32,475 nt of DNA from Amoebophrya sp. A120 (GCA_905178155.1 CAJINV010000005.1:1224954-1257428); one strand, 5' to 3'; counted from the first letter of the stretch, positions 1,791-30,565 are shown. The notes: generated by a model not told the origin, from the sequence alone. Translations and numbers: made by a program.

Positions 1791-1797
1791 ATCCAAA

Positions 1798-5773: not shown

Positions 5774-8700
5774 ATGCGACATTTTTGTTTGTTTGTCGTT
5801 TTTTTTCTCACCACCGCATCTTCCGTTCCTGATGCAAACGGCGCAGCACGACGATTACATTTACATCCCGGTACCGTCGGCACAACGACAGACAGCGGCT
5901 TCTGGAGGTGGTTTGGCTCGGAGCAGTCCATTTTTGACGTTTCCCAAGCGCCGGAGGCGTCCAGGTCTGTATCGAGATCGGACTCCAAAGCTGCGGCCCG
6001 TGCGCGGTACTGTGTGTGGAAAACACAAGAAGTAGAAGATACCACCGACGATGGCAGAATTCTGCAGTGCGTGCGCCGATGGATGGCGTGGGACACGTCC
6101 GACGAAGCCGTGCCGCACCAAACCCTGCACTGCGGCCAAAATGGAGAAGATGACACTTCTGAAGAAGGTCTTCTCGAAGGAAATCAGCACAAGGCGGAAA
6201 TAAATACGAGTAGTATCCTCAATAATTTTCCGTCTAGCTTTGACTTTCGTGAGAGTGGTGCCTCACAAGGTGCTGATCCTGCAAGAACGGAGACGGAGCA
6301 GAGGAGACGAGATGCATTTGCCGTCGACCATGGTGACGAGCAGGCAACCGCTGGCCGTCGGCGCGTCTTGGCGTTTGTGGGCGATTCCTTACTACGACAG
6401 CAGACTCTCGTGCTCGCTTGTGTCCTTACCAAGGGCGGGTGGGACGGCGCCTAGTACGTCGATCTTGCCGAGTTGCGCGCAGAGCTTAGAAGTGTGGGAC
6501 AAAGAACTGGTGTTGCGCAAGATTCATCTGCACAAGGCGAAGCGGGAGAGGACAAAAATGCGCCACAGATCAACACGACCGTTTCAGACACAACTAAAGA
6601 GGAGAAAAGAACAAGGACCATGATTGTCTCAAATAACGTCCACTATTTGCCAGATGTCTCCGATCTCCCCGACGCCGCCGTGGCACAGGGAGTTTTTCCG
6701 CCAAGAAGCCAGATGAACCCCGTGGAACTCGTGCTGTCGCCAATGATAGTACCCTCTGTATCGCCCGGAAAGACATGCTTAGTAGACTAGGCATGATGTA
6801 GCTATAGGATTTCTCAGCTCGTCATCCCTGGTGTGCCATGCCTAGGTTTTTCCCCGTAAAAATACAGTTCTACAAAAAGGGAAGACCTCTCGCATGCTGC
6901 GAAAGCGACCCGGTTGTTCTATTTTCCGGCGCAGTGGCTGACGAGAAATAGCAAGATTCAAGAGCACGGATGGTTGGCCAACTTCCCTCCTCCAACAACA
7001 GGCGCGGCCTCATCCTCAGCACCGGGCAACGAGGACAAAAAGAGCGACAGCATGATTGCCACGCATATAACAGCACACGAAAATCCATTTTCCCTGGACC
7101 ATTTCCACACCAATCCTCATCCTCTCGCGCTGCCGGAGTTGCTGGGTGCCATTGGTGGAATAGAGAGAGCAATGGAGAACAAAACCCGGAGTTGTACAGC
7201 AGCTTCTAGTGAAGATGCTGCCCGTAGTACTACTAGCAGTGGTACAACAACTTTGGGAGATGACGGAGGTAGTTCCACCGGGGGCACCACGACACGGCAA
7301 GAAGTAGAAGCAACGTCATCAACAACGCCGCCGCCACCGGCCGAGAGGGACGCTCAGGATGTAGTTGACAGCGAGATGATCTCGTTTCAAATTGTCGTGA
7401 ACCATGGGGCGCACTCGCTCAACCAGTTTGGGCTCGAAAACTGCGGCTTTCTCGACGGCGGTGCGATAGGAGAAACTATGCAGCGGCTGTATGCGGTGGT
7501 GAAAGAATACCTGTTTTTGAAGCCCGATAGAAGAAGTACTAGTGCGGTTGCAGAGCATCCGCTTCCACTTCCTCTCGTTGTTGACCATCTTCACGAAGAA
7601 GAAGATGAATCGCGCCTGCAGCTTAAAAGAAAGAGAGTCCGCATACGGTACCAGCAGGCCCCGCCGACGTTCTATCAAATGTAAAAGTGTCATGGTCTGG
7701 GAGGATACAACTTGTGACGCTACTTTTGGAATCTACAACGTAGAAACTGTATTGCATGAACAGCAAAAGAGGTGTAATTTGTGCTCCGCGGAGAGGGCAT
7801 TTCTCATGCGGTATGAGCATCAGAAAGCCCTTGCAACACCTCTGATGCTAGGGCATGCATCACAGGAGACCTCGTGGGTCATGCAAAATCTGCATGACAA
7901 ACTCCTGCATTCTTCCAGACCCAGACATTTTTCCAATCCATACGTTCTGGCGGACTACAAACGGGTGGTTTGACCTCAGTGTCGCGCAACGCTGGCAACA
8001 GTGGGTGCTCCCGGAGCACTACCCCTCGTTATTCTTTATGCACCGAAAAAATAATATCACCAACCGGTGCGCGCCCCTGAATCGCACGAGACGGGATCCG
8101 CGGTGGTACGGCACGGAGGCGGAATCGATGGAACAAGCGCAGCATGAAATGCAAATATGTCTGGGTCTGGAAAGAATGGGATTTGTGATGCTATTGCCAA
8201 TCTTCTATGCTACAAAACCCTGTGTTGCATGAGCAGCAAAAGGTGCTTGATTTTTTGTCACCCGCAGCGGGCATTTCTCATTCAGGATCGGCATGAGCAA
8301 GCCTTCGCGAGAGGTCGAGGTGTGGTGCTGGAGCATGCATCACAGGCAACACGGGTCATGTGCTATTGATATTGTGCATGAGAAACTCCCCCAATCTTCC
8401 AGACCCAGACATACTTATTTGCATTTGATACGCAGCAAATGGGGCTGCTCCCGATTCCGGGCAGACCCAACTCCGCGTACGTGCAGAAACCGCACTGCGC
8501 TCCCTTTTGCCACCTGCCGAACTTCCTGTGCGCGCTGCGCGAAAAACTCGTGTTTGGTGACACGTTTGGATGGAACAGGACCGCAGGAACGGTTCAACAT
8601 GAAGATGTCGAAAAAAAGATGAACCCACTGAAGACGAGAGCGGCAATCGACTCGAGTGTCGAGTTCGTCTCGGCGTACCAACACATAGTCACGCATCCTT

Positions 8701-8783
8701 CGCCGACCATATCGGGCACGGATTGCACGCACCTCCGACCCGACGTGCTGCTTGCGTTGTTGAAATTAAGTCTCCATGATTGA
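5774..8783 (+). CDS. PC-esterase / trichome-birefringence-like (SGNH-type acyl-esterase or acetyltransferase), interrupted gene
   Basis: Signal-peptide-like start, LAFVGDSLLRQQ (GDS motif) and C-terminal GTDCTH (DxxH). Approximate exons 5774-~6757, ~6866-7672, 7948-8142, 8436-8783. One in-frame TAG at 6452-6454. Confidence 0.7.
6758..6865. mobile_element. Degenerate hairpin intron / old TIR element, boundaries uncertain
   Basis: GTAT...ATAC ends with internal IR CTAGGCATG/CATGCCTAG; contains a stop; flanking coding segments share a frame; no clear TSD. Confidence 0.4.
7673..7942. mobile_element. Introner family A (270 bp), TSD CGTTC
   Basis: TIR TATCAAATGTAAAAGTGTC.../...CCAGACCCAGACATTTTTCCAATCCATA; CGTTC at 7668-7672 and 7943-7947; join gives PPTFWRTTNGWF. 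Confidence 0.9.
8143..8430. mobile_element. Introner family A (288 bp), TSD CGCAG
   Basis: TGTCTGGGTCTGGAA/TTCCAGACCCAGACA TIR (left end degenerate, CATG); CGCAG at 8138-8142 and 8431-8435; join gives EQAQQMGLLP. Confidence 0.9.
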
Positions 8784-9160
8784 TTGATTAACTTGAAGTC
8801 GACGACTTTCGTGAGGTCGCAGTTTTTAGTTGCAATTGCAACTAAAAACTAAAGAAAATAAAATAATGATAATCTCATTGAAAATTAAAGAAACAGCAAA
8901 CAACAATATTGCACGTCCTGAAGAACTTGTGTGTTCGGAATTGATGAGCTTCTCGTGTGTATTAAGATGTAGCTGCGAAGGTGTATGTTGATGTTTGCAA
9001 GATCGCTCATGCTAAAAACAGCCCTTCGAAAGATCTGAAACGAACCTAAAATTACCTCGATCCTGGCCAGTAAAGAAAAGTTCCGAATCGAAAACAAGAA
9101 TATTCCAAGTTGTAGTCAACACAGAGACAGATGTGGCTGTGGCAGTGTCAGTGGCCGCTG

Positions 9161-9245
9161 TCATGATGAGTCAAATTTGAAAAAAGGAAAGGATCTGAAC
9201 GCGCAAGTGTCGAGACCTTTACCGAGTCTGATAAACTCACTCTGA
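9161..9245 (+). ncRNA. Candidate box C/D snoRNA, paralog of 5432-5515
   Basis: ATGATGA at 9163-9169 and three downstream CTGA boxes, the last at 9242-9245. Confidence 0.5.
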
Positions 9246-9549
9246 TATTATGGCCGTCCTTTGAGTTTGAGGATGAATGTGCTCTAACTCTTGTCCTTGA
9301 TAAAGAAAAACGAAGCATCTTGGTTCATTTTCATATTTTTCTGCTACCGAAAATCGAAATTATCCCAATTCTAAGCACAGGTTGAGGATAACAGCAGCTA
9401 GCAAGGACACGACAGATTACAACGCAGATATGTGATCTCAATAGCGAAGACGGAAGACACATTAGAGAAACAAAAATACAGTGTTATAGATACCTCGATT
9501 TTGCTCCGACAAGAAATAAAACGGCAAAAGAAAATCAACAAAACCGACA

Positions 9550-12500
9550 ATGCTGTCCAACAACAAGCGGAAGCGCAACGACAAAGCCGCTAAAGGCTCG
9601 GCGGAAAATGCTATCAAAGCAAAAAAGAGCAAAACCGACGAGCCAACGGTCGGCACCAGCAGTCCGACGGATAAGGACGAGGAGGACTTGAGTGAGGAAG
9701 ACGAGGAGGAAATTTCTCATCAACAGGATGAGCAAAGCCGACCGGGCTCCTGCGACGAGGACGAGATAAGCCAGGAACATGAAGATTCTCAAGACCAGTC
9801 CGAGTCCGGCGAGCCCGTGATGCTTGCCCCGGTGACCATCCTCGGGCACCGGGTTCTCCCCGGCGTCGTGAAGCACACGGTGCTAGAGAACCAGCCGCTG
9901 GGGGTGTTCACCTACGAGGACAATTTCCGGAACGCAGAGGATTTGGAAACCGCGAAGCAGCAGTGCGAGATCCTGCAGACCAAGCCGAAGACGTCCGACG
10001 CGGAAAACGAAAACTACTCCGCGGGGAACACGTACTGGATCGGGGCAAATGACGAGCCGAAGTTTCTGTTGGAGAAGCTCGCGAAGGAAATTTTTTTGCA
10101 GTACACCAAGGAAATCCCCATCGATTTTGAGGATAATGTGGACGAATCCGAGAATAATTCCGATGATGAAGATGGACAACAAGAAGCTGGTGCTACTTCT
10201 TCCGCGCAGGAGAAGATGCAGGAACAGATTTCCCTGAACAAGTCTGGCAGCTTCCAGATGCGTATCACAAGAAAAAGTGTTAACATTAACGGTTTTCACA
10301 GATGGCAGTCATGCATATACAAATTTCGCCTTCCATGCATGCTATGCAATACAAATTTGCGCACCTTTTCTGATGCATCACTGCATCACAAATTCCGTTA
10401 ACGTTAACACTTTTTTTTGTGATAATGCGCCGGCGTGTCCCCCCGGCTCTGGTGAAGAAAAACGAGCAGGAAACGTTGAAATCAAAAAGCGATGTTGGAG
10501 TAGAGCAGGAACAAGGTACCGGAGTCGCGGCAGTGGCAGGAGCACCTGCTTCAGGAGACGCGGAACAAGAAGACTCCAACGAGGATTTTTACATCTGCAA
10601 TCCGTGCAAGGATGAAGATTGCACGGAACTACAAGGTGGTAACGAATCCGGTACCGACGCCGAAAGGAATGAACTCCTCGGCCGGGATATCGAAAGAAAA
10701 AATCCCCCCTCCCCATATCGAAACGGAATTTCTGCTGCTGGATTTGTGTACACAGATCAGCTTTGTATTGCAGAGAGGCATTCTTGCGGCCAGGCCCCAG
10801 GCTAGGTAGGGGCGTATGGGTCTAGTTGTTCAGCATGGCAAACGGCTTCCCTTTAGGCGCAATAGCATTACAAATCGCGTCCATCATGGGGCGGAAGCTT
10901 CTGCCCTTGTCTTCTTGCAATACAAATGTGATTTGTGACCGGAAATCAGCAACGCAAATTTTCGGAAACAACCCTGCTCAATATGGGGAGGGGGGATTTT
11001 TCCTTCTGATACGGGATTTGACGGCGCCGGTCCCGGCGAGTATTTCCGGGGCGGAGTACTGGGCGGTGGTGTTGGATGACAAGGAAAAAGAAGACAGCGA
11101 CAACGTGGACCTGCACTTCGACAAGGATTACATTTTGGAGGAGGATCACAAGGTGAACTTGCACCCCTTATTCGGCTCGGTGTTGTACTTGACCAACCAC
11201 GGGGCGCCGACGGTCGTGACCGCCCAGCGGGAGGAGTACATGCCGGCGATCACGTTCAACTTGTCCCCGGAGAAAGGTCTCGACAGTAACGAAAACATGT
11301 GCGTCGTCTCCTATCCGCGAGCCGGGAAGCACGTCGTGTTCGACGGGCAACTGTTGCATTTCGCGGACGGATATCAACTGCAAAAGTGTCTGGGTCTGGA
11401 AGGATGCAAGGTTTGTCATGCACAGTCTGCATGACTCCTGACGTCTGTGAGGCATGCCCTAGCATCACAGATTTTGTGAGGTGGGCTTCCTGATGCCTAT
11501 AACGCATGAGAAATGCCCTCTCGCCGTGGCAAAAACTGGACCTCTTTATTTGCTGTTTATGGTGCAATCCAGATTTTTGTAGTATCCAAATGCAGCATCA
11601 CAAGTTGCAACCTTGCAGACCCAGACATATTTGCACTGCATAACGGAAGTCTCGCGCAGCAGAAGGCGGAGAACAGGAAGCGGATCGCCCTGTTGGTGAA
11701 CATATCAAATGTAAAAATGTCTAGGTCTGGAAGAATGCCACTTGTGATGCTAACTTTGGATTCTAAAAAAATCTGTATTGCATGACCAGCAAGAGGCGCC
11801 CAGTTTGTGCTACGCGGGGAGGGCATTTGTCATGCGGGATAGGCATCAGGAAGGCCTGTAGAAACACGTGATGCTAGATCATGCATTACAGACATCCTGA
11901 GTCATGCAAAGTATGCATGACAAACCTGCTAAGCTTCCAGACCCAGACACTTATACATTTGATAGAGCATCTGGGTGGGGCACCGCCCGGTGGAATGTCT
12001 CCGAATGGAGGAAGACACGGGGAAGAGAAAATTGTTGGAGAAAATCATCGCGGTAGAGAAGAAAGAAAACCAAAATAAGGTCAAAGAACAAGCAGAAGGA
12101 ACAAAGGAACAAAAAACTGCTTTGTCCTTCACCAGTCCCGGCCTGATCCACGTTGTGAATGACAAGCACGAGGTGGACCAGGAGTGCCAAAAAGCTTGCA
12201 CCTTCTCGAAAAAGTTCAAATCCTCCACCAACCAGTACGAGTTTGGGCGATGCGATTGGGTCAATTTTGAGGCTGTGGCGGAAGATGCAAAAGAAAAATT
12301 ACCCTCGACTCTGTTTTACCCGCCAGGGGGAGTGATTGATGTCAGTGAAGAAGGCAAGAACGGCCGCGGGCCTGGAACAGCAGCTCCTGTAGGAAGCGCT
12401 ATGAAGAAGAAGGCCGCTCCTGGTGCTGCGAAGAAAAAGCAAGAAGAACATCCGCCCCCACCTCCGGAGGAGCCGATGGATGCGGAGTTGGTCGAATCTT

Positions 12501-12694
12501 TGATCGGGCAGGGTGAGGCTTTGAAGACGGTCTTCCTCACCACCCATTTCCCGGGCCGTGACGCGGGCAACAGAAAGCCGCACGGACTGACCATTCGGGG
12601 GAGCAAGCAGAAGATGGGAAATGAGAAAGAAGAGTGCAACAAGCACAAGAAGCTCTTCGACCCGGTCATTCGACTAACGACGAAATTTATGTGA
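9550..12694 (+). CDS. 2OG-Fe(II) oxygenase-like protein with acidic low-complexity regions, four TIR inserts
   Basis: Exons 9550-10262, 10430-10687, 11017-11371, 11648-11702, 11970-12694 join in frame; motifs GAEYW, LHFDKD (HxD), HPLFGSVLYL, FDGQLLH, RIALLVNIW. Confidence 0.75.
10263..10424. mobile_element. Introner family C (162 bp), TSD ATGCG
   Basis: TIR TATCACAAGAAAAAGTGTTAACATTAACGG / CCGTTAACGTTAACACTTTTTTTTGTGATA; ATGCG at 10258-10262 and 10425-10429; join gives FQMRRRVPP. Confidence 0.9.
10688..11011. mobile_element. Introner family B (324 bp), TSD CGGGA
   Basis: TIR TATCGAAAGAAAAAATCCCCCCTCCCCATAT / ATATGGGGAGGGGGGATTTTTCCTTCTGATA; CGGGA at 10683-10687 and 11012-11016; join gives LLGRDLTAP. 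Confidence 0.92.
11372..11642. mobile_element. Introner family A (271 bp, reverse orientation), TSD ACGGA
   Basis: ACGGA at 11367-11371 and 11643-11647; join gives LLHFADGSLAQ. Confidence 0.9.
11703..11964. mobile_element. Introner family A (262 bp), TSD GAACA/GAGCA
   Basis: TATCAAATGTAAAA...ATACATTTGATA; TSD has one mismatch (11698-11702, 11965-11969); join gives LLVNIWVGHRP. Confidence 0.88.
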
Positions 12695-13495
12695 GATGAA
12701 GTAGATGAGAACAACAACAAATACAAAAAACCGACCCGCACGGGGCGTATTGCCGCGTTGTTGACCACGACCTGTGGGAGTAATTGTACGGCGCTTTACT
12801 TTTAACTTTTACTTTTGCAAATAACGACGAAGAACGAGACGAAAAATTGAAGGCCGGTGTGTGGCAATGAGTGGCGCCACAACGATACTATCCTCTTTTT
12901 CAGGCTCAGACTTCCTCATCACTACTGCGCAGTAGTACGACTCGATACACGACTCTACGTATATGAGAAGATGAAACCAAAACACGAAATCGTAGCCTTG
13001 ACCTTGAGGAGCTTCACAACATGTAAAAAAAGCTGGACACGAATTGACTCGGCTGTTCTACTTGTCTCTTGGATGATGTTGGAGATCATAGGACCCGCTC
13101 GTCGATCTTGTGAATCGTGCTCTCAAACGAAGATCCGAAAGGGGCACGGAACGTCGCACTGTCAACTTCAGAATGAAATAACCGGCTCGGATCAGCATCA
13201 ACCAAGAAGATCATGCAAGGTGAAGATCTTCAAAAACAAAAAATGCAGCTGTCGCCGAAGTGGAGGACATTCATGTTTGCAGTCTGTGCCGTAGCGGTTA
13301 TGGCTATGAGTGAGCACGCCGTGCTGTTGCAAAGTTCATGATTTAGTCTACTTTTCTCACAGCGGCATGAGTAGTATCAGGTCCTTCGATTCCACTTGTT
13401 TATTTTTCATTTGTTCACGACGATATCTTTTGTGTACCATAAGGATTCTTAAGAAGTTGAAGTCCGCATCAATTTGAATTTCAATAGATTGCAAA

Positions 13496-15630
13496 ATGAA
13501 AAAACTTCAATGGCCCCTTTTCGGTGACAAAAATGGAAAGTCCAGCATCGAGGTCTATCACCATGGCCGAGTGGAGGCAGAGGTAAAAATCAAACCAGAC
13601 TGCTCGCATGAGGACCAACACGACGGCGCTTGGCGGTTCGGCTATGATTACAAGAGAAGCAAGCCAGACAGAAACAACAGACCGACCTGGGAATCCTTGC
13701 AAAAGGAAAAGATCGCGATCGTGCGAAATGTCATACCGAGACATGTTTTGGAAGAGGCAAGGAACGCAATTGGCGACACGGACGGCTTGCTGAGCAGAAT
13801 AGACGTCCAGCAGAGTGACGAGGTGCTGGGTGTGCTGGAGAATGAGAATCTAGTGAAGTGTGTCCGATCCATGTTGGAAATCGTGCAGAATGATAAAGAG
13901 CAAGAAGAAAGAAATGCTGTGGCCGCCCATTGTGCGGAAGGAAAAGACGAGCCTCGAGCTGTTGAACCCGAAGGAGCAGTTGTTGTAGAGCCACGAAATA
14001 AAACTACTGCACAAAGCGAAAAAGTCCTTGAGACAACAAGTTACAAATGGCTTCGATGTGTCAAGGAGCTGAAGTACACCGGGCTGCATCGGGATTTTTT
14101 CTACCTGCAAAACGACAAGTACTACACCGTTTGGATCCCGTTTTTGCCCAGAACAGAATTGCAGCACGGGGCTCTGGTCTGGCAGTCCTTGATGTCGGAG
14201 GAAGAGAAGAAGGAAGAGCGAGACAGCAAAAGCGAGCGCGTGGCTGCCATGCCGGAAATAAGCGAACAAAATAAGGCTACAAATATAATCACCGACGTCG
14301 AGCATTAGCGCGAAAGTACCCCTAACGAAAAAATCTCCAACAAATTGCAAAAGTTTTCGAAATTTTTTGTCGTCGTTGTTTTGTTACGCGTTGCGATGGT
14401 ATGGGCCGAGATGGCCAGCAGGCTTGGTATGTGGCCGGTGTGGGGGAGTTCTGGCCGCGAGGCCTGGTGAGGCCGCAGGCCCGGTGCAGCATAAAGCTTG
14501 GGGCTGACAGCCCATCGCGTCATGGCGCGCGAGTCGTTTTAGTGATTATTTTGGCCGTGAAAGCGTTTGCGCCTTTTTTCCAAAATTCGGCCAAAAATAA
14601 ATCGCAGGCGGGCCCGTTTTTCGGCGCCCAAATTTCCGGCGGACCGCAGACGGACTGCAGACGGACCACACTTGGGCAACAAAACAAATTTTCAAAATTC
14701 CCAAAGTGAGGCGATTCCTTAGGGCTTTTGCAGGCTCGAGCCAATTCGGGTGATTTTGTTTGCACAAAAAGGATTTGTTTTTGCAACAAGCGGAATTTGG
14801 GAAAAATTTGTTTTTGCACAAAAAAAATTTGGGAAGGCGTTACGAATGGGGGGTAAGATTGGGGGTTGAGAATTTTTCTTTCCCGGGAAGCAGGACGCCG
14901 TGCTGCGTGAACGCAATCCATGTCGCGGCTGCAGAATTAGTGCTGTGGGCCCGGATGGTTGGGCAACCTCCCGCGCAAGTCGGGCCTACATTCCGAAGGC
15001 TTCAACATGGCAGGCCTCGGCATTCCAGTTGCCCCGGTCATGGCCGCAGAAAGAGTCACGCCCTTTTTGGGGGTTTTCGCGACGACAAAAAAAAACGAAA
15101 TTTGTTGGATTCAGATTCCTTAGGGCTCCTTTCTGCCCAACGAGCAGGGGGTGGGGGACGCGTCCTCGACGACCAGTGAGGGTCCAGCACCCACTTCAGC
15201 CGCCAAGAGAGAATCCATCTGTTCGCCCGAGAAACCGACGGTGAAAAAGCGAAAAGTCCTCGAGGAGGACGCCCCAGCGAGCGGAGGCGGGGAAGAAGTA
15301 GATCCTGTAAAAACTACAGATGAATCGGCAGCACAGCAAAGCAATGGCACCACTTCCGGGTGGCTGTGCCTTGACGCGTCGGAATACGAACATCCGGAAG
15401 GCTTCTGCTGGCGCTCGACGGATTTCGAGGCCGGGGACATCGCGATTTTTGACATGAGCTTGCTCCACATGACCGTACCAAATCTGTCGGCTGTGAACAG
15501 GATATCCTGCGACACCAGGTGGCGACTGCGGCGACGAGATGTTTGTGCAGCAGATATTGAAACAGAGAAAGAACCGAAAGCATTGGGGTGGAAAGAAGTT
15601 CCATATGAAAGTGTGATTCCCGAGGACTAA
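13496..15630 (+). CDS. Phytanoyl-CoA dioxygenase (PhyH)-family protein
   Basis: WLRCV...TGLHRDFFYL...YTVWIPF in exon 13496-14304 and WRSTDFEAGDIAIFDMSLLHMT...RISCDTRW in exon 15147-15630; in frame after removing the insert. Confidence 0.8.
14305..15140. mobile_element. Large TIR element / introner family G (836 bp), 6-bp TSD CGAGCA
   Basis: CGAGCA at 14299-14304 and 15141-15146; imperfect ~70-bp TIR (CCCTAA..TCCAACAAATT..TTTTTTGTCGTCG vs CGACGACAAAAAA..AATTTGTTGGA..TTAGGG); TT...AA ends; join gives TDVEQGVGDAS. Confidence 0.85.
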
Positions 15631-16374
15631 TAAGCAGTATACCGATCCCGTTTTCTTATACTTTTTACGTTTACCTTGAAGGACGACTATGAAGCGAGAC
15701 ATAACGAATATTCTTACCTGTCTGAGAGAGCATCATCCGCTCCACCAGATAGTTTGTAGGAAAAGAAGCTGGGCAAGTTCGAGTCAGCTGCTGATGTTCA
15801 TTCGGAGAACTTTTGTCGCGAGTAGAGTTGTTGACATATCCACTGAACCTTGCATGGTTTTTCAGACATTTGCAGGAGAAACCGGAGGGCGGATTGAGAA
15901 GAGTAGAGAGAAACGACTTTAAGGACATTTTTTGATTCTATTCTGTTTGCGTTTTAAATTCATACTTTTTCTGACTGGTTTAGGTTTTCTTCGAAAAGCA
16001 TCTTGCTTTCAGATGAAGTTCCCAAGGCTGTGGTTTCTTTTCACATTCTTCTTGTTGAGCGCATGAGATCGTCACTTTGAACTGTTTTTCATTCCTGTAC
16101 TTACTATCTATACCATGAATCAAATAACCTAGACCTACCGCATTGAAAATAGGGGCGCGCGCAAAGGAATCGGTCGAAGATCTTATATCAACTCTCGAAA
16201 TTATCTTACCTCGAGAAGACCTGTAAAAGGCTATTATCCAGTCACATGGCGTAGTATGAGATTTTACGAAATGGAAATTATTTTTTGAGATGAAATAAAA
16301 ACAGAAAGAGCAAGAAGTTGGAGGTCTTCACTTCCCCCACTGTTATGTACTTTTTCGAGCCGAACTCCGTAAAG

Positions 16375-19300: not shown

Positions 19301-22300
19301 TGGAAATATCTTTCCCCGACGGTATTGCGTGACACGCACTCACTGCGTGTCAAGTGCGTGTCACTCTTCACGCCTGTATTCTCGCCACCAGCGATTCGGT
19401 AGTGCGTGTCAGTGCGTGTCACCAGATTTAGGTGCAAAAAGTGACACGCACTGACACGCACTAGATGCGTGTCACTACCATACCGTGCAGGAATGAGACA
19501 ACGCCTGTTGGGTTTTGGTCTTCCCCGATGGTATACGGTGACACGCACTGAGTGCGTGTCACTTTTTGCACTATATTCTGGTGACACGCAGTGACACGCA
19601 ATGCGGTACGCAAGTGACACGCAGTGTGACACGCACTGCGTGTCACTTGCGTATCACTTTGCGTGTCAACTGCGTGTCACTTTTTGGACTCAACTGCGTG
19701 TCAACTGCGTGTCACTTTTTGGACGTTTTGCTTGTCTGAGCGTGTTCATTTTTTTGCGCCTTTTCTTCCCGAATTCGACTGCCTTTTTTTGCGCCACATT
19801 CTGCTTTTTTGAACAACAGAAAATACGGCTTTTTTCTGTACTTTGGCAGCTCCAAGTTGAAGAAAAAGGCCGCGCTGTGTGCTTTGCTGCAGAAAGTACT
19901 CAAGACCGGCGCCCCCGCCCTCCCTGCTGGCGGGGGTTGGCCGGCATGGGAGAGAGCACGAAGCGCCCGGAAAAGGGAAAAGAGGCCTTTTCCTGAAACT
20001 TGGCGGCCCGAAGTTGCAGAAAAAGGCCTCCAAATAATTGCCGCGAGCAAGTGCGCGCGCTTGGTCTGACTTGGCTTCTTTGGCTCGGGCGATGCTTCCT
20101 CGCTATTGTTGGGCGCGCAGCTGGGGGCGCGGTTGGGTGCAAGCCGGCTTCTTTGCTGCGATAGCTGCGAAGAAACGAAAAGAAGGGCTTTTTCTGCAAC
20201 TTGGCGGCCCCAACTTGTTGAAAAAGCCTGTCAGGCGAGACTTGCTCTGGATAACACTCGGAAGGAACGCAACGAAATATTTTCGAAGCAATTCAATTGA
20301 CGCTCCCATACTGGCACTGCAGCTGCTACAACAGGTAGAAGTTCCCGATCGAAAATGAAAGACACTCGCCCTACTCTCCTCCACCACTACCTAGATCCGG
20401 AAACCTGCATTCAGAAAGTCCGTTCAAGACGGGCGAGTCAGCAGAGTGTTCTTGACGTGAAGAGTCAGCGGAACTTTGTTTTCGAAGAAGATCGGCGGAA
20501 AATTGGGGCGGACCGCGAAGAGTCTGCTTCATCAGTTCGCCGTGGGAAGAGAAAAAGCAAAGCAGGAAGGAAATCCGCTTCCAGAGGAGGGCACGACCAG
20601 CATCGTCGTGCTGGCCACAGAGGAGATGTTGATCATGCCAGTGAACAGAGAAGCGAGCATCGGAAGTCCGGCCGGGCCCGGCGCCGGCCTTCTCCAGAAG
20701 AAGAAGAGCATAATGAGCATGTTGGTGATCCGCAACAGGGCGGCCGTCGTGGGGAGAAAAGAAACGGGCAAGAGCACCACAAACCGCCCCGCAAAAGTTC
20801 CAAGACCATGCCGAGTTCTCCATCTGGAGCTGCGGTGCGGAAGAAATCCTACAAAGAGTTCGGGAACAACTTCTACACGTCGCCAAACTCGCCGAGTGAT
20901 ATTAAGCTTAAGCGGGAAAATAAAACTTCTAGCCCGGCGCCAGCGTCAACATCCAGGGCACCAGAGATGAGCAGAAGCGAAAGGAGGCGTCGGCGCAGAA
21001 AGTCGCATCGGCACGCTTCTGAGTGCGGAGGACTACAGGAGGAACAACAGCAGCCAAAAAGCGCGGCAAGCGAAAACAATAAGAAGAGTCCGGCAAAACA
21101 GGGCGCAGCTTCCATTATGCCAAGTCGAGCCAGAAGTAGGGACGTGGATGAAGAACAAAGTCCACAGAATAATTATTCAAAGACTGATTTGGACAACTGC
21201 GAGGACATGCTGAATAGCTCCACCACCAGCCGCAGACCGCCCTCCAACGAAAGCAATTTCCGTGCCCCAAATCGCTCGCGAGCGGGAACCAGCGTCGGGC
21301 CGACAATGAACAATAAACAGTCCGATTCAACAACATCTGCACAGCAGTCCACCTCCGCGAGCAGTGCCACGTATGAACTGCAAAAGTATCGTACTAGTAC
21401 AAATTGCATTACAAATTAACTTAGCATTACAAATTTAAATTTGTAATGCGGATTTGCCTTAACAAAAAGATTTGTAATGCATAAACGCAAGTAGTACGAG
21501 TACGATACTTTTGCACAGGATACCACGACACCAAGAGCTCTGGTCCCCGGTGTTGTTCCGATGCCGCCGTTATCAAATGCAAAAATGTCTGGGTCTGGAA
21601 GAATGCAGATTTTTGTCATGGTGTTTTTGCTTGACACAGAAGGTCTGTCATGGAAAGCCTAGCATCACAGATTTCGAGAACGTTCCGCAATGCTTAATCC
21701 GCATGACAAATCCCCCTGTTTGGTGACAGAAAGTGGGAACCTTTTTCTGCCTATGCATGAGAGATTTGCGCGTGTTGTGGAATTCGCATCACAAACTCGG
21801 ATTCTTCCAGACCCAGACGTTTTTGCATTTGATAGCCGTATGGTGCGACCTACAACGTGCCCATTCCGACCCCCTGGCCGAACGCGGCATTTAATGGTAC
21901 TATCCCGAGGGGGTGCAGCGGGGAGTCCGCAAAGGATATTAGACCGCAGCAGTTACCGACGTCGAGCAAGACGGGCGAAGATGATGTCGAAGCAGTGGAG
22001 CTGCAAGTAGACCCTCGTCTTGTTCAAAACGGCCTTTTGCAGCAGGAGGCAGACGTAGAATTGGAAGACAACGTGATCGCCAGCTCCGAATCTCGCAGAA
22101 AAACGCTGTGTAATCCGGAGACAAAAACTACAAACATGAATTCCGCAACTGAGACCTCAAATTTGGTCAACAACGCCACCCTGCTCGATGCGAACGAGAA
22201 CCGGATTTCTGACATCCCACTCCATCCCTCCTCCCGAAACGTCGGGTTCTCTGATTTGCAATTCGAGGCCAGCCCCGTGGAAGAGCAAAGCGAGACGTCC

Positions 22301-24168
22301 TCTTCAACGAGAAATCAGCGAGAGAAGGCGAATATCCAGTGCAAATATGTCTGGGTCTGGAAAGAATGGAATTTGTGATGCCAACCTTCGATGATACAAA
22401 AACCTGTATTGCATGAGCAGCAAACGGCACTCAGTTTTTGCTAGTCTGCGAAAGCATTTTTTCTCATGCAGTATAGGCGTGAGAAAGCCTTCACAAAACC
22501 TGTAATGCTAAAGCATGCATCACCGACATTGCAGGTAAAATTTGCATGGCAAACTCCCCCAATCTTCCAGACCCTGACATATTTGCAATCCATAGCGAAG
22601 GCAGCGAAGCGAGTTTCCTCCTCCTCCACCGTTGTTGTAGCGCCGGACGAAGTATCCGTGTGCAAAAGTATCGTACTCGTATTGCAAACATGCATTACAA
22701 ATCTTTATCGCAAGGTCAATCCGCATTACAAATTTTCTCTCTAATGCTGTAATGCATTTATAAGAGTACGATACTTTTGCAGGTCATACGAAGTAGAGGG
22801 TCCGCCGCGACGAGCGAGACACCAGTTGCCCACACCCGGCGCGATGTCGCAGGGGGGACAGTCGGAAGGTATATTATATTGGGTTTTCTGATACATCAGT
22901 GTCAGTGTCGGCATTCTTCTTGCATGATGACAAGGAGTTGTTCTTGACGTATGCTTGGCATGGAAAATTCAAACACAGCAACCAAAGAACTCAATACATC
23001 TTCAGGTCTCACCGACGATCTTTACAGCTACAGTGTTTTTCTCGCTACCAACGGCGGAACAATCTTGTCTTCCGACGGGAGCAGTTCGACCACCTCCACT
23101 TCTTCCAGTCACACACGAAAGGAAATGCTGCAGCAATCTGTTGTCCCGTTTCAGCACCCTTTTGTCGCGGGTGGCGGTACCACTACAACGTATAGCAGTT
23201 ACGGAGCAAATGCAAATCAAAATCTAATGAACAAAACGCGCCAGCCGCCACCGAAGCCCGGCAGCAGTGCGACGATGAGCAGCAGATCTCGCCACAACAT
23301 GATCATGCCCACAATTAACGACAACGAACTTTCTGGTGAGCAAATTTCCACCGAGAACAATTCTTGCAATAAGCAGAACAGCACTGTGTTGATTTTGAAC
23401 CGCGCTTTGCCACCCAGCACAGTTAACACGTCGTCCAGCGCAAGTGCAACTACTTCCAGCTCCTCTTCCGGTCAGATTCACGACAGCATGATCGTCGATT
23501 CCGGACCACCTGATGATACATCTAAAGAGAAAAAGCTCCTCCTGGTTCCCAGCCGCAACAAGATGCTCTTCGTCACGGGCAAAGCGCCCTACCGCGGACC
23601 GCCGGCCTGTTTCAAAAAACCGCCGGAGCTGATTGGAGTGCCGAAGAGAAGGCCCACGACCGGCTCGACGATCGCAGAATCGTTCAAAAGCTTACTGAAG
23701 ATGAAGAGCAGTACCAGTGCGAACAACGAATCTACCGCGTCACGGACGCGAAGCGCGTCGCCGGGTGCTTCTACTTCTTGCAAGAACGGGGGGAAAAACA
23801 ACAATCAGTTTTTCACCAGCTCCAAGATGAACCGGCAAATTGTCGGGGAGCACAAGCAGGCACAGGAAACAACAGCTTATTCCGCTTGTTGGCGCAGTAG
23901 AACCAAATCATCGCACGAAGACTGCTCTCACCGACGCGACGCTCCTCCCGATGAAGTCTGCCTCCTTGACGAGGAATGGCAGCGGGTTGACGCGTGGTTT
24001 CGGCTACCGCAAGAGCCGACGATTTTGCAGGCGCAGAAGGTGAAGTCGCCCGACGGCGTGTCCGAGCAGTGCTGTGCCGTGGACCGCTTGGCGAGTATAC
24101 CAGTGGAAGTTCACTTCGGGGAACGACCAATAATATCGAGCAAGATGACAACCAATTGCGCTGTTTGA
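16375..24168 (+). CDS. Very large low-complexity (S/N/K/Q/R-rich) hypothetical protein, multi-exon; 5' end uncertain
   Basis: Segments ~16957-19033, 20335-21371, 21528-21570, 21840-22332, 22600-22652, 22794-22868, 23006-24168 join in one frame (GT-AG intron 22869-23005 inferred). The ATG at 16375 is in frame across elements D and E, but a TAA at 16954 needs one more unresolved intron. Confidence 0.6.
16421..16595. mobile_element. Introner family D (175 bp), TSD GGAAG
   Basis: TIR TATCCTACAGAAAAAGACAGGCAGG / CCTGCCTGCTTTTTTCTGTAGGATA; GGAAG at 16416-16420 and 16596-16600. Confidence 0.9.
16650..16887. mobile_element. Introner family E (238 bp), TSD ATGCT
   Basis: TIR TATGCTGTTCTCAACTACTACATTCTCAACTG / CAGTTGAGAGTGTAACAGTTGAGAGCGCCATA; ATGCT at 16645-16649 and 16888-16892. 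Confidence 0.88.
19010..20354. repeat. 44-bp perfect direct repeats (19010-19053, 20311-20354) flanking a 1257-bp repeat-rich insert
   Basis: CTGGCACTGCAGCTGCTACAACAGGTAGAAGTTCCCGATCGAAA occurs twice; a partial third copy lies at ~19067-19084. Confidence 0.9.
19325..19720. repeat. Array of GTGACACGCA / TGCGTGTCAC motifs in direct and inverted orientation
   Basis: More than 15 copies by eye, often paired as GTGACACGCAC-N-TGCGTGTCAC hairpins. Confidence 0.85.
21372..21522. mobile_element. Introner family F (151 bp), TSD CCACG
   Basis: TIR TGCAAAAGTATCGTACT / AGTACGATACTTTTGCA; CCACG at 21367-21371 and 21523-21527. Confidence 0.9.
21571..21834. mobile_element. Introner family A (264 bp, reverse), TSD GCCGT
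   Basis: Near-perfect TIR TATCAAATGCAAAAATGTCTGGGTCTGGAAGAAT; GCCGT at 21566-21570 and 21835-21839. Confidence 0.92.
22333..22594. mobile_element. Introner family A (262 bp), TSD GCGAA
   Basis: GCGAA at 22328-22332 and 22595-22599; join gives EKAKAAKRV. Confidence 0.9.
22653..22788. mobile_element. Introner family F (136 bp, inverted relative to 21372), TSD CGAAG
   Basis: CGAAG at 22648-22652 and 22789-22793; same TIR core as 21372-21522. Confidence 0.9.
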
Positions 24169-25578
24169 TGCGATCTACCTTTGGCTATGCCACGAACTTA
24201 TTGACACTTCCATCTAAGACAGAGTAAGATTAACAACATTTGACCATACCAGCACTAGCACGGCCTTTCTATGGATGCCTTTTGTTTTTTCAAGAAATAA
24301 TCCGACTGTAGTCACGATGAGCTTAGTCTGTGACCGTGTGATAAAAAACCAAGACCAACCCCCTTCTTTCGTTTCCTGTTTCTTGCCCACTTTGAATAAT
24401 TGCTGAAGATTCTACTGTGCTTCGCTTGTGATCCTACTGATATGCTACATCTTCATCCAATCTGAACATTCTTGCGCCAGCCAACACGTATTCAAAATTT
24501 CTTGCCTATTGACACGTATAAGTTCAAGTCTGAGTCAGCATCGAGTCGGGTTAGTTTTTACTTCGTCTTGCTTATTGAAAGAAAATCTTACCTTCAGGTA
24601 TGTCGCAACATTTCTACTAACAGCCTGTCTTGTCATACAGTCTTACAACATCTTGAATTCTCGAAATTCACGGCAGATGAGGTGGCGCCATGACATTGTT
24701 TCTTTGAATTTTTACAAATTGTCTTTTGTCACTTGATAATATGCCAGTGCCATCATCTTATTTATCCATTTATTTTCGCTCAGGAACAGAGCTATCGTAC
24801 CCACAGACAAGAACCCACGTTCCGACTTCTTGTTGGTAGCAGCCCTCTGCAAGAATGAAGGTGAAACGTCGGCTTCCAACCGTAGCTCGTTCGCCTCAAT
24901 AGAAGTATTTTCGTCCTGCTTCAGCTAACTCAATACAAGCCCGAGGTAGTACTCCCACCTGCACTTCTGCAACGGGCGAGAACAAAGCTCGTCTTCATCA
25001 CCAGGCCAACAAAATAAGTAGATCCTCCTCAGCGCTTCAGAAAAAATTAAACTCTAGTCCCGCCTTTGAATAAAAAGTTGATATCAGCTACACCGGGGCT
25101 GAACTTTTTATATTTTCCGGACAATTACTATCTGAACGTGAACACAGATAAAGATAGACTCTATCTTGCGCAATAAGTAATTCATTTTTTACCTCGCAAA
25201 GGAGCTGTACTGTTGTCCACGTGAAATTAATTGTAAATTATCCAAGATTACGAGGTTGGTGCCTTTGTTTACCGAATCTGGTTCAGACGGTGTTGGAACG
25301 CAAGCAAATCAGGTGTTCGCTGTGACTGTGGCATGGCACCATCTTCAACCGCTTCAACCGCAACCCGGGCACTATCGACGACGCGACGAAGTCAAAAGGA
25401 GAAGGAAAGAAAGAGCGAGTTTTTGAGAGTAAGACGGACGGATATTGTCGTCGCATTATATACCATTGGCATTGATTAAGTAACAAGTTGACGAGCAATT
25501 TTGATGTGTCGGAGTTTATGCTCCATCTTGTTTTTCTACTTCTTGACTGATTAGCACAGTATCGAAAACTGAATCAAA

Positions 25579-28500
25579 ATGCCAAGCATCGCCGTGGGAA
25601 AGTATCTTTTGCACACTGAGGTGCGCCTTGGTTCCGGCGGGTTTGGCGAGGTCCACGCAGCGAGTCGGCGCGGCAGTGTGGAGACCGAAGACTTGGCGAT
25701 AAAAGTCGGGAACCGAAGAGGGCTGAATTCCAAGAACAAATTGAGAAACACCTGCGACACGAACGAGTTGCACATTTTGCAATCGATAAAACACCCAAAC
25801 ATCGTCGAGCTCTGCGACCACTTCGTCGCGGACCATGGACGCTTGCACTTGGTCATGCGCCGGGCAGCGGGGGACTTGACTGTCATGGTCAGTCAGCACC
25901 ACAGTTGTAGTTCATCGTCCTCTTGTGATCTTCATACAGCGACATCACGACCGAGTACAACTACAGCCGCTCCTTCCTCCGCTGCCACGACGTTCGACGA
26001 CTACGACCAGTGGAATTGCAGCCTGCAGATTTGCCTGGGCCTGGAATTCCTGCACAACAAGAACATCCTGCATCGGGACTTGAAGCCGGAGAATATTCTG
26101 TTCTTCAAGGGCGCCGGCTCGGGGGTCAACGGCAGTCGCAGTTTAGTCTGGAAACTGGCAGTATCAAATGCAAATATCATGTCTGGGTCCTCTGGAACTT
26201 TGTGATGCTAAAATGTGCATGATGATGATGAAAAGACATCCTTATGCTCGAACACATGACAAGTTTACAGAATGCTTTCTTTAATACAAAGTCCGCATAA
26301 GAAACTGCGTTTTTGTACGACGTGAGAGGCTGCCACTTTTGTTGGTCACGCGATACAGATTTCACAGGAAAAATGTAAGACCAGCATTACAAGTTCCAAC
26401 TTCGCAGACCCAGACCTATTTGCGTTTGATAGGCAGACTTCGGGATTGGGAAGGAGGTCGACTGCGCCCACGTGGCGCAGTATCGTAAAGAAAAATCCCC
26501 CCTCCCCATATCGAAAAGGATTGTTTCCGAAAATTTGTGTTGCTGATTTGAGGTCACAAATCACATTTGTCGTGCAAGAAGACAAGGGCAGAAGCTTCCG
26601 TCCCACTATGGAAGCGATTTGTCATGCTGTTGGGCCTAAAGGTGAGCCGTTTGCCGTGCTGCACAACTAGACCCATACGCCCCTATCTAGCCTGGGGGTC
26701 TGGCCGCAATGCCTCTCGGCAATACAAACCTGATTTGTGTACACGAATCCAGCATCAGAAATTCCGTTTTGATATGCGGGGGGGGATTTTTCCTTTCGAT
26801 ACGCAGACGCACACGGTCTGCGGGACCCACTTGTACATGGCGCCGGAGGTTCTGCGCGGGGACCGGTACTTCGCGGCGGCCGACCTGTGGAGCTTGGGGG
26901 CGGTGCTGCACTACGTGCGGTTTGGAAAGTATAAACTGCGTTCGTTTTTGAGTTATTTGATAGTACTGGCATTGGATCATTCTTCATCTACTTCTAAGCG
27001 TCGTGATCTTGCGCATTGTTCTCTCAATCTCGTCGTCCTGGTGGTCACAAGTGGAATTATGCAAAAAACGTTCGTGAAGATTCACTACCACTTGTTGTCA
27101 AAAATTATCCACCCAGGGTTCTCTTCACCACCCCGGCCCAAGTCCTTCTCTGGAGCACTTCGAACGAGCTCGACGATTTCCCGGGCAAGAACACCCTCCA
27201 CGCCGACATGTCGCAGCGGGTTAAATTGAAGACGGTTCTGTCGGAAATTACCTCAAACGCCAAAACCATGTCCCACCCCAACAAATTGATCTCCTCCGCT
27301 CCCGCGGAGGTTTTAGAGGCGTACTTCTCCAGCAACACCGCGTCGCAGAAGTTCTGGTCCAGTAACGCGGGCAACGAAATCATGCTGGATATCGTCCAGG
27401 AAAAATCCCCTCTCCCCATATCGAGACGAAGTTTCTGATGCTGGATTTCCGGACACAAATGCGCGCTGTCTTGCAGTAAAGCATCGCAGCCAAATCCTCA
27501 GCCTAGGTAGGGGCGTTTGGGGGTCTAGTTGTTCACGTTTGGGTCTAGTAGTTGTTTAGCATTTTTACAAACGGCTGTCCCCGACTAGGCCCAACAGCAT
27601 CCATGCCAAATCGCTCCCATAATGGCCGCGCGGAAGCGTCTGCACTTGTCTTCTACTAACTTGCAAGACAGACGTGATTTTTTGTGGTCTCAAAAGAGCA
27701 GCACATCATACCGCTTCGATATGGGGAGGGAGGATAGGGATTTTTCTTTTTGATACTGGAGTGCCGACCGGAAGCGAGAAACGCAGTGCTCAGGAACCTA
27801 CCGTCGATCATCGCGAGCTGCACCAGGAGTTTGCGGGGCAGCAGTTCCGGCAGTAAGTTGAACAAACTTGTAGCGCCGGGTGGATCGGGCAGAAGTAGTA
27901 GTTCATCTTCCGGCTTGCGACGAAGCCGTGAGAAACAGAACATCAAAAGGGACAACAAAAACAATCAAAACCACACCGACGCCGAAGACGAGGAGGTCGA
28001 CCACATGAAGAGCGTCAGTGAAAACGACGAAGAGATGAGCGGAGACCGGGAAATGGACTCCGAGACCGAGGACGCACATTCGGAGGTGAACAGCACCGTG
28101 GTTGGGCAACCGGACCAGCCACCCGCACTGTCGTCCCTTCCCGTCGAGAATTCATCGGCCACGAAAAAGCAGAAACGCGGGCCGTTCCCCTTTTTCCTCT
28201 TCCGATTCCTGTGTATAAATCGCAAAGACCAAGAGGCGTTACATTTACTTGACTACGCCGACTCCGTGTACGATCTGAAAGTGTGTGTCCCGGTATTTGC
28301 GGCCGCCTTCGGACGGCTCATGACCGAGAAGTTGTGGGCAGGTAAGTACGTGGTTTGTAATGCGGTTCCGCATTGAGTGTGAGTTTGTGTTTGAGTTGCA
28401 ATGTTGTTGCTTCGTCCAGCTGTGGACGAGGAATTTGCACCGCTCCCCTTTCAGATTCAAATTGCTCTCCAAATAAGGTCTCCATTCTCACAAGCAGTGG

Positions 28501-28709
28501 CTTTCTTCCTGGCGTGTTCAGTGGCGGCCGGACGAAATGGGCGGGGGCTGCACCATCGAGAAAACGCAGCCGGCTGCGTTTCTGAACAACAGCAAGGCGG
28601 TTTCTGGCTGGACGCGAAAAGCATCAGTTTAAGTTTTTGCTGCAGCCGATCTGCTCCGTGTAGTGCACGTCGTGTGCCTGGCACAGAGGTCAGCTCTTTT
28701 ATGAAGTAA
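25579..28709 (+). CDS. Ser/Thr protein kinase, split by three TIR elements and two GT-AG introns
   Basis: GSGGFGEV, LAIK, HPNIV, HRDLKPEN. Exons 25579-26161, 26437-26480, 26807-26928, 27117-27389, 27761-28341, 28420-28709 give KLADFGIG, TVCGTHLYMAPE, DLWSLG and MLECRPEAR. Canonical introns 26929-27116 and 28342-28419. Confidence 0.9.
26162..26431. mobile_element. Introner family A (270 bp, reverse), TSD GGCAG, at the DFG motif
   Basis: GGCAG at 26157-26161 and 26432-26436; removal gives K-L-A-D-F-G. Confidence 0.93.
26481..26801. mobile_element. Introner family B (321 bp, inverted relative to 10688), TSD CGCAG
   Basis: CGCAG at 26476-26480 and 26802-26806; removal restores the activation loop VAQTHTVCGT. 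Confidence 0.93.
27390..27755. mobile_element. Introner family B (366 bp, diverged), TSD CTGGA
   Basis: CTGGA at 27385-27389 and 27756-27760; removal gives the kinase subdomain XI-like IMLECRPEAR. Confidence 0.9.
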
Positions 28710-29747
28710 GTAGAGAGAATCCAGGTTCTTATATGTTGCTGAATACTTGATGTTGATAAATACCGATAAATGAGAACAATTCTGGTTTTATGCCAACACC
28801 CTCCAAGCTTTTTGCTATACTTAATTTCACTTTTTGAAATCAAGTTAGTTATTTCTACTCTCGTTTCATGCTTTGCTAGCATTGGTACTATCTCCGCAGG
28901 AAAGTGTTGGCCAGCAGTATCGTTTTCATAAACGATTCACGCCAATAGTAATAGAGATGTGTTTGGGCTCTTGAGCGCACTGTGTATGTGTGGCGCTTTT
29001 TTCCCCAACCAAGCTCAAATTTATTCGATGGCCAAAAAACAAAAACCCTGCACGACAAGTGAAAACAGAACTACTTCTTTCCAGCTTATCTAAGGACGGC
29101 GCGGCTGCTAATGTTTCAACGAGAACGCCAAGACACAACAAATTGAACGGCTTCCATTGAGAGAAAAATAAGTACACAGCGACAGTTTTCAACCGAGCCA
29201 CGTCAACGCGTTCAACGGGGGTAAAGATAACGAGCGAATCATCTGTCACCGATCAGTAATTTATTTCGGTCAGAAGTCTCACTCACTCTCGCAGACGCAG
29301 TTTTTTTGTGTTGCAGCTCAAGTGACGACTTGGGGAATTTACTGTGCACAACTTGAACTTCGGTCAATGCTTTTTGTGCCCGAGAAAAGTTATACTTCTA
29401 TCTGCAAGTAGAAGTAGTAGCTTTGTTAGAGCAGGGGGGTTTTGCTTCTGCAAAAGCTATGCTATTGAACTCCACATCATTCTTGAGGTCGAAGTTTCAC
29501 GCTGAGATCTAACGTTTTATCTGCAGGCCCAGTAGTTGGAAAGCGAAAAAGCAACGACGCGCTAAACAAGTACAAAACCGATCAACGCTCGCAAAGCAAC
29601 GATCGACATTTCCCACAGTAATTTTCCCTAGAAGCCTACTCGTTGCACCTAAGACTTAGAGGAACTATTTCAGCTTCACCTCGCGGCCTGGAAGTAGTAA
29701 CAGACCACAATAAAGTAGTAAGCGAAATCCAAATCGCAAAATAAATC

Positions 29748-29894
29748 ATGGCCGCTCCCGACAGCACCTTCGTCATTTTTGGCGGCTTGGGACGCCAGGG
29801 CGGTTCCGTGGCCGAGGCGCTTGGCAAGGAATTCCCGGAGGGCAAAATCAAACTCGTCACCCGTGGGGACCCGAAATCGGAGAAGGCGATGAAG
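29748..29894 (+). pseudogene. NmrA-like NAD(P)-binding protein, N-terminal exon only
   Basis: FVIFGGLGRQGGSVAEAL...KLVTRGDPKSEKA is a typical NmrA N-terminus; no continuation is visible after the element at 29895. Confidence 0.6.
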
Positions 29895-30165
29895 TATCAA
29901 TTTGTAAAAGTGTCTGGGTCTGGAAGAATGTTGCGCGATTTGTCATGCAGCTTTCCAATGACCCATGAAGGCTGGAATGCAGGACCTAGCATGACAGATT
30001 CTGTGCGATCTCTCTCATGCCTATCCTGCATGAGAAACTCCCTCCCGACTGGACTTGGTCAAAACTGGACGACTTTATAGTAATCACGCAACACAGATTT
30101 TTGCATGCTTCAGATTTAGCATGACAAGTTGCATTCTTCCAGACCCAGACACTTTTACATTTGAT
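29895..30165. mobile_element. Introner family A (reverse) with disrupted right junction
   Basis: Near-perfect TIR to ...TACATTTGAT; the expected A+TGAAG is replaced by TTAGGCTG-TGAAG. Confidence 0.85.
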
Positions 30166-30565
30166 TTAGGCTGTGAAGGATCGCCAAAGATACGATCTCA
30201 GACGAATGAATTTGCGATGCCCGCATGTAAAATGAAAACGTAAATCTAGACTGTTGTTCTTGTGATCGCAGAGATCACTCGGGTAGCCCTGCTGGTTCGT
30301 ACGTTGAATCAGTAGCACCGGAGCCCCACCGGTGCCCGCGTTGGCTAGGGATTGATCTGAGAGATTAGAGCGTTGAGTGAGCGCTCTGCTGATTGAGCGC
30401 GATTTGCACGTGCTGCATGAGAGGAGCGCGTTTTTTTCTCACTGCAACGAGTGCAGTTTCACTTGATCGAGCGATCTTGAGGTGATGTGGATTAGAAGTA
30501 CTAAGTGGCCGCCACATTCATCTTCCCTCACAAATCGATACCATAGGATTGAAATTGAAACCAAG

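Follow-up and report, generated by a model that had tools for sequence, protein, structure and literature searches.

A stretch of 32,475 nucleotides from Amoebophrya sp. A120 (GCA_905178155.1 CAJINV010000005.1:1224954-1257428; hereafter the window) carries within its coding regions 16 short elements with terminal inverted repeats (TIRs) and TAT..ATA-type ends, 15 of which are flanked by a 5-bp target-site duplication (TSD). We found that these 15 elements are missing exactly, together with one copy of the duplication, from contigs of putative RNA runs, that copies of a family lie in both orientations, and that the duplication holds no splice signal. The elements are almost certainly the published introner elements of A120, which resemble MITEs (miniature inverted-repeat transposable elements); we give an even chance to the fuller view that they are excised by a relaxed U2-type spliceosome reading the element ends. 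The phenomenon is already known, in that TAT ends, 5-bp repeats, non-canonical junctions and a Ginger-like candidate mobiliser have all been published. New here are the duplications without splice signal, the lack of a G·U preference between the arms, a strand-dependent decay of the end bases, and two mismatched duplications that would place the cut 1-2 nt before TAT.

Anatomy of the elements and their exact removal

A mechanical scan of the window for TAT..ATA stretches lying between 5-bp repeats, ranked by inverted-repeat score, recovered all 15 duplication-bearing elements (136-366 bp) among its top 16 matches, with the sizes and duplications that an earlier sequence-only reading had listed. 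Under the strictest criteria (exact TAT..ATA, exact 5-bp repeat, TIR score of at least 5) 13 elements were retained, and none in each of 10 shuffled windows; the two outside this set are the element at 8143, which begins with CAT, and that at 11703, whose duplication reads GAACA/GAGCA. BLAST sorts the elements into six families of 8, 3, 2, 1, 1 and 1 members, the number proposed before, with copies in both orientations. None of the TAT..ATA elements of the window carries a transposase-like open reading frame (ORF). When the junction is slid through the duplication, GT-AG ends appear in 0/15 elements, GC-AG once (at 26162) and GA-AG once (at 16421), exactly as had been claimed; the GT(GC)-AG ends that characterise U2-type introns are therefore represented by a single GC-AG.

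Of the 11 sequencing runs listed, none is on record as RNA and four were taken as RNA by guess; X1, X3-X6 and X9 were aligned to the window. Evidence for removal comes from contigs of the four putative RNA runs, which stand for at most 2 samples of 1 study. Between positions 6700 and 20420, all eight duplication-bearing elements appear as joints that skip exactly the element plus 5 nt, six of them in 4/4 putative RNA runs and those at 16421 and 16650 in 2/4. Between 20300 and 31900, aligned pieces of X3/X6 contigs are separated by gaps of 43, 131 and 171 letters, which equal element-plus-5 removal at 21372, 21571, 22333, 22653, 26162 and 26481 together with two GT-AG introns; at these six sites only the sums are established, the junctions not being individually displayed. 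Contig joints and gaps thus fit the precise, GT-AG-free loss put forward by the sequence-only reading at all 15 sites. The elements are as follows.

7673..7942, + strand: family A element, TSD CGTTC; joint 7666>7942 skips 275 nt in 4/4 runs
8143..8430, + strand: family A element, TSD CGCAG; CAT start after G (a GC-type donor under the model below); 293 nt skipped in 4/4 runs
10263..10424, + strand: family D element, TSD ATGCG; 167 nt skipped in 4/4 runs
10688..11011, + strand: family B element, TSD CGGGA; 329 nt skipped in 4/4 runs
11372..11642, + strand: family A element, TSD ACGGA; 276 nt skipped in 4/4 runs
11703..11964, + strand: family A element, mismatched TSD GAACA/GAGCA; joint 11700>11968 in 4/4 runs
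14305..15140, + strand: seventeenth element, 836 bp, with TTAG..CCAA at its ends and a 6-bp repeat (CGAGCA); GT-AG in no register
16421..16595, + strand: family E element, TSD GGAAG; 180 nt skipped in X5 and X6
16650..16887, + strand: family F element, TSD ATGCT; 243 nt skipped in X5 and X6
21372..21522, + strand: family C element, TSD CCACG; 43-letter contig gap in X3/X6, shared with 21571
21571..21834, + strand: family A element, TSD GCCGT; 43-letter contig gap in X3/X6, shared with 21372
22333..22594, + strand: family A element, TSD GCGAA; 131-letter contig gap in X3/X6, shared with 22653
22653..22788, + strand: family C element, TSD CGAAG; 131-letter contig gap in X3/X6, shared with 22333
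26162..26431, + strand: family A element, TSD GGCAG; interrupts the kinase LADFG motif; 171-letter gap in X6, shared with 26481
26481..26801, + strand: family B element, TSD CGCAG; 171-letter gap in X6, shared with 26162
27390..27755, + strand: family B element, TSD CTGGA; direct join 27384 to 27756 in X6, 371 nt skipped
29895..30166, + strand: family A element, TSD not flush; exon upstream of it ending at 29893 (two runs)

Single contigs span up to four elements unbroken, and the 11703 joint sits inside unbroken contigs of ~2.5 kb in three of the four runs. Contigs without elements also drop GT-AG introns. In X1, by contrast, contigs read across the canonical introns and enter the element ends, so that this run behaves like DNA, with the elements retained. 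The putative RNA runs, too, contain element ends that are joined to other flanks. Run X9 (a 2026 RNA run under the same species label) contributes 51 raw reads, found only at element ends and thus without junctions; its matches at 21571 and 30079-30165 are related family-A ends, 90-95% alike, with other flanks.

The inventory of 15 elements plus one without duplication drawn up from the sequence was correct, and missed the 836-bp element, whose joint 14298>15141 skips 842 nt in X4, X5 and X6 (3/4 putative RNA runs). Its TT-type ends resemble the TTA motif published for strain A25. Concerning the element at 29895-30166, it has family-A ends, terminates in ATT, and allows a G|T..AG reading at 29894-30169. 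It lies in a region (29748-30360) where two runs place the end of an NmrA-like first exon (a weak Pfam match) at 29893; read as GT..AG, the site leads to an early stop, and the contigs, which show a 1-nt deletion, run on into ~30220-30290. Beyond 30170 the sequence appears to be multi-copy.

The elements interrupt the following genes.

6860..8783, + strand: host reading frame, 451 codons once its 2 elements are removed
9550..12694, + strand: host gene, 701 aa, 4 elements; product identical to P0001, an annotated protein of Amoebophrya sp. A120
13478..15630, + strand: host reading frame, 436 codons, split by the 836-bp element
16294..24168, + strand: host reading frame, 1675 codons, 6 elements; GT-AG introns 16943-17095, 19034-20334 and 22869-23005
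25579..28632, + strand: gene for a 585-aa protein kinase (Pfam Pkinase), 3 elements; GT-AG introns 26929-27116 and 28342-28477

Removal of each element with one duplication restores continuous frames of 451, 701, 1675 and 585 codons, in agreement with the sequence-only reading, and rebuilds the LADFG motif of the kinase. Retention of any single one of the 9 elements tested (in the 451-, 701- and 585-codon genes) truncates the protein, and homologs are colinear at the protein level across two conserved junctions. One exon of 9550-12694 matches an annotated A120 protein at 100%, and the whole spliced gene is identical to it, which means that the public annotation already treats its four elements as introns. 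This identity, together with the match to published motifs, upholds the earlier assignment to Amoebophrya introners. Among canonical donors with RNA support, 3/5 are GTAT.

One end signature in many families

A larger sample was obtained from at least 156 loci (541 kb, partly overlapping), all from assembly JACKZZ01 and from one metagenome scan. This is a sister assembly without RNA data; one of its exons is 91% identical to an A120 protein, so it represents a close relative and not the same genome. Relatives of all six window families, at 70-91% identity, are present in the JACKZZ01 loci listed, where the 836-bp element has none. A search for TAT..ATA candidates made without a repeat filter gave 382, of which 263 are flanked by an exact 5-bp repeat and another 48 by one with a single mismatch, 4-bp and 6-bp repeats occurring 2 and 0 times. 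An end-agnostic scan returned TAT/TAT ends with 5 bp in 237 of 328 matches, the remainder being mostly the same elements in a shifted register or palindromes inside them; in 263 kb of shuffled DNA it gave 1 match. The 327 TAT-type elements fall into 23 sequence clusters, so that the single end signature noticed earlier across unrelated window families holds more widely. In a logo of 263 elements, A reaches 0.88-0.93 at positions 11-13 (TAT being imposed there, and recovered freely by the end-agnostic scan).

This agrees with the A120 inverted-repeat motifs described as a TAT start, seven variable bases and at least 3 A (Farhat 2021, PMC7789003), to which the window elements conform, that at 16650 being without the A run. 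The same study reported that >60% of Amoebophrya introns are non-canonical, with RNA-supported junctions and 29,850 repeated introns, and described A120 direct repeats as variable, of 3-5 nt, with one 5-bp example; its text reports no transposase and leaves the position of the borders unknown (Farhat 2021, PMC7789003). The window elements share the organism, the TAT inverted repeats, the 3-5 nt direct repeat and transcript-supported non-canonical junctions, and belong to repeated families, many other flanks being found at element ends in X1; the two do not differ in kind, but the present data give the repeat a uniform length of 5 bp and narrow the cut position to -2/-1 (PMC7789003). Like MITEs, these introners have TIRs and a constant TSD, are short and non-coding, and lie in both orientations, the largest family being split 76:57 by orientation.

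One signature in many families would fit a single class of mobilising enzyme. Insertion would be due to a trans-acting DDE enzyme, perhaps of the Ginger/integrase-like class to which family 38 of A120 has been proposed to belong, making 5-bp staggered cuts with no sequence preference. That family appears in a dataset row as a TIR/'Ginger' introner with '5-bp TSD, TA/TA termini'; it is ~808 bp long with ORFs resembling long-terminal-repeat (LTR) element proteins, and the paper itself states that it lacks the expected Ginger termini and TSDs (Gozashti 2025, PMC12130899). The window elements share its 5-bp TSD and TA/TA termini and are without its ORFs (PMC12130899); having no ORF, they do not show the integrase-like transposase that goes with Ginger transposons. 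We could not find any autonomous copy with a transposase in the window or in the 541 kb of loci listed, scanned up to 1.5-1.6 kb. The longest TAT element (JACKZZ01 locus L021, 505-1608) holds a GC-rich, unrelated-looking insert and no convincing ORF. Searches of viral contigs and of Rfam gave 0 matches each.

Several other lineages offer points of comparison. In Fritillaria borealis, MITE-derived introns with TIRs, TSDs and non-GT-AG ends are reported to be excised by the spliceosome and provide a precedent (PMC11282704, PMC13326754), but they have preferred AG-AC and AG-AT motifs and a conserved U1 5' end, whereas we found no preferred duplication-derived motif (PMC13326754). Introners of Micromonas and Aureococcus are likewise non-autonomous DNA transposons turned introns that leave the protein unchanged; their ends are canonical, one splice site being brought by the element and the second taken over from the TSD, in contrast to the signal-free TSD found here (PMC11282704). 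Nonconventional introns of euglenids share paired ends, TSD-like repeats and the lack of GT-AG, but their junctions follow a pyrimidine|purine consensus and their products are circles (PMC11170887, PMC11282704); the elements studied here have no such exon-side bias.

What the removal machinery may read

To orient the elements of the larger sample we used a codon model that had learned from the window genes and that placed 202/263 and 240/303 candidates and left 61/263 and 63/303 not orientable; neighbours were co-oriented 79:6. A dubious element (L051) was excluded before the counts of duplication mismatches, insertion phase, terminal departures, arm skew and GT-AG registers. The composition of the duplication is exon-like at all five positions, with 27/202 lacking G, and a GT-AG register is available in 11/206 elements vs 9.7 +/- 3.0 after shuffling; with exon-like duplications and GT-AG at chance level, no splice site is co-opted from the target. 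Two candidate signals were discarded: a donor G within the duplication (G is held by 15/15 window TSDs) occurs in 175/202 vs a background of 83%, and GT-AG enrichment across registers was nowhere above chance. Insertion phase is skewed to phase 1 (108/71/60, p=0.0004).

Concerning RNA structure, arm mismatches on the transcribed strand count 199 G.U vs 182 A.C (p=0.41, a single test of low power), and the positions of the arm that adjoin the base of the stem (4-7) are paired in only 42-78% of elements. With no G.U excess and poor pairing at these positions, selection for an RNA stem is undetected, and the structure-guided removal suggested by the sequence-only reading finds no support in this one test. 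The end bases behave differently according to the strand: among 254 oriented elements, departures from TAT at positions 1/2/3 number 2/0/6 in the 5' arm and 9/5/1 in the 3' arm (23 events in 22 elements; permutation p=0.00175), the spared bases being U and A at the 5' end and, in the 3' arm, the A that stands third from the end. Since families insert in both orientations, transposition cannot create this skew. Positions 11-13 show no comparable arm skew (13 vs 11), and a comparison of family-consensus 5' and 3' arms found no significant position between 4 and 20. Such strand-dependent keeping of single end bases points to sequence reading.

Some sites bear on the register of the cut. At 11703 the transcript retains the third base of the left copy, where homologs have N at a conserved residue; at locus L005 the A120 ortholog agrees with the fifth base of the right copy, as predicted by a register of -1 noted beforehand. 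Both 5' CAT variants are preceded by G, which gives a GC donor. These data suggest that the 5' cut falls 1 or 2 nt before TAT (-2 or -1), if the register is fixed.

We tentatively propose, at slightly less than even confidence, that removal is carried out by a relaxed U2 spliceosome with an N-UA donor, a branch A at -3 and a counted 3' cut. A 5' cut one base before TAT would make the intron start N-U-A-U-(C/G), in which +2 to +4 equal the bases of this genome's canonical GUAU donors, +1 being left free. Branching would occur at the A three bases from the 3' end of the element; a count of 6 nt from this A would set the 3' cut, which would then lie within the second copy of the duplication and require no AG. 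Inverted-repeat ends would place both signals in either orientation, and the hairpin may help to bring the ends together. The 836-bp element can be read likewise post hoc, with a U-U-A start and an A 6 nt before the cut, as can the TT-start motifs of A25, which are weakened by aligner placement (PMC7789003). T occupies +2 in 8/9 top A120 motifs and 9/9 top A25 motifs, and 83/89 spliceosome proteins plus U2, U4, U5 and U6 were found in A120 (Farhat 2021, PMC7789003). The branch motifs of Yarrowia, usually one base from the 3' motif, offer a precedent for short spacing (PMC13309789). In the literature covered by a partial search, no work was found that settles the register of the cut or suggests a branch point for these introns; figures 3 and S19-S25 of Farhat 2021 may bear on this.

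Several points weigh against this proposal. The putative branch A and 6-nt count rest on 23 departures in the sister assembly, reached after several tests and with codon-model orientation, the branch and its lariat being predictions. The register depends on two sites, one of them via ortholog parsimony, a third (L072, position 5) having no ortholog and matching only its own gene call. The bases that precede the candidate branch A are not constant (C or G at position 4, with 5-7 also varying), so pairing with U2 is not evident. U1 small nuclear RNA was undetected in A120, and the published top-motif tables hinge on how the aligner places ambiguous junctions (Farhat 2021, PMC7789003). The RNA status of the runs is guessed, and their independence from the published data is not established. 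Finally, single duplication mismatches in the JACKZZ01 loci are synonymous in 21/33 cases (22/33 at third codon positions), which exceeds the 0.39-0.46 expected with one neutral copy (p 0.004-0.035); a fixed register does not explain this excess, which favours a floating junction.

According to such a model, joining would be guided by homology and could fall anywhere within the 5-bp duplication, either copy entering the mRNA and both being coding-constrained. It accounts for the mismatches, 0.62-0.68 being expected to be synonymous at omega 0.2 when both copies are constrained, and sliding would be invisible between identical copies. However, 11703 shows the same joint in 4/4 runs, in three of them inside the ~2.5-kb contigs, and the mismatch sample is small and unreplicated; we hold a floating junction to be improbable. 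The main rival, unlikely but appreciably less so, is hairpin-directed removal, in which the TIR hairpin would be the substrate of a spliceosome-independent route (endonuclease and ligase, or euglenid-like circles) cutting at fixed offsets from the stem base. Seven window elements do fold at z of -5.1 to -13.7 vs -1.0 to +1.1 for four canonical introns, but strong folding is expected from TIRs alone; the 836-bp element folds overall no better than shuffled sequence (z -0.41), although its ends pair. This route would suit the lack of any dinucleotide rule, the removal of that element in spite of its different ends, the undetected U1 (PMC7789003) and the example of euglenid nonconventional introns, which pair at their ends and leave as circles (PMC11282704). 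It is harder to reconcile with the G.U and A.C counts and the weak pairing at positions 4-7 given above, and with single end bases being kept strand-asymmetrically while their partners decay.

Two further explanations would place the loss outside RNA processing. Excision of internal eliminated sequences (IESs) in ciliates removes the element plus one repeat, which the removal described here resembles, and the elements might similarly be excised from DNA in the transcribing stage, leaving one repeat. A DNA-like run holds 417 joints beyond those displayed, and life stages are undeclared; nevertheless, X1 contigs continue through flank-element junctions, the other-flank element ends in the putative RNA runs indicate element-bearing molecules there, and end conservation depends on the transcribed strand, so that we consider DNA excision very improbable. 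Short direct repeats combined with strong structure are a known setting for template switching by reverse transcriptase, and all data are presumably cDNA-based. An artefact of this kind is nonetheless the least credible explanation: retained elements would truncate proteins and split the kinase LADFG motif, colinearity with homologs extends over the two conserved junctions, one unbroken contig may traverse as many as four elements, and the mismatched repeat at 11703 is removed just as exactly as the others.

Other features of the window and implications

The 1.3-kb GT-AG intron at 19034-20334 is flanked by a 44-bp exact duplication containing CAG|GT, is filled with TGCGTGTCA repeats and inverted repeats, and is joined in one X3 contig; it looks like an intron gained via a duplicated proto-splice site. 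At the start of the window, a 394-bp direct repeat (99%; 2-395 and 5007-5400) surrounds a 780-codon ORF with no Pfam or PDB sequence match, which carries an HSLRIGG stretch that we take to be tyrosine-recombinase-like; the region is possibly a DIRS/Crypton-like element. Its ORFs are:

585-1787: ORF in the 394-bp-repeat region
1756-4095: ORF in the 394-bp-repeat region
4430-5152: ORF in the 394-bp-repeat region

An 84-bp intergenic repeat, 93% identical, lies upstream of two genes (5432-5515 and 9161-9244). At the other end, coiled-coil and Cys-rich ORFs (30467-31965 and 32040-32475) with no Pfam match, uncovered by X3/X6 contigs, are followed by a short-repeat region.

For the removal of Amoebophrya non-canonical introns, the register and branch model yields single-base predictions. 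In its strongest form, which we hold to be possible but rather doubtful, a spliceosome would dispense with G+1 and with the 3' AG, reading only U+2/A+3 and a branch A, all provided by the palindromic ends of the transposon, with a fixed 6 nt to the 3' cut so that exactly one TSD is lost, and would handle tens of thousands of transposon introns in this way. If this is true, a TAT..ATA transposon landing anywhere, in either orientation, would be an instant seamless intron. The spliceosome would then work without either terminal G rule, which would explain how a class of transposons with no site preference can invade exons at no coding cost.

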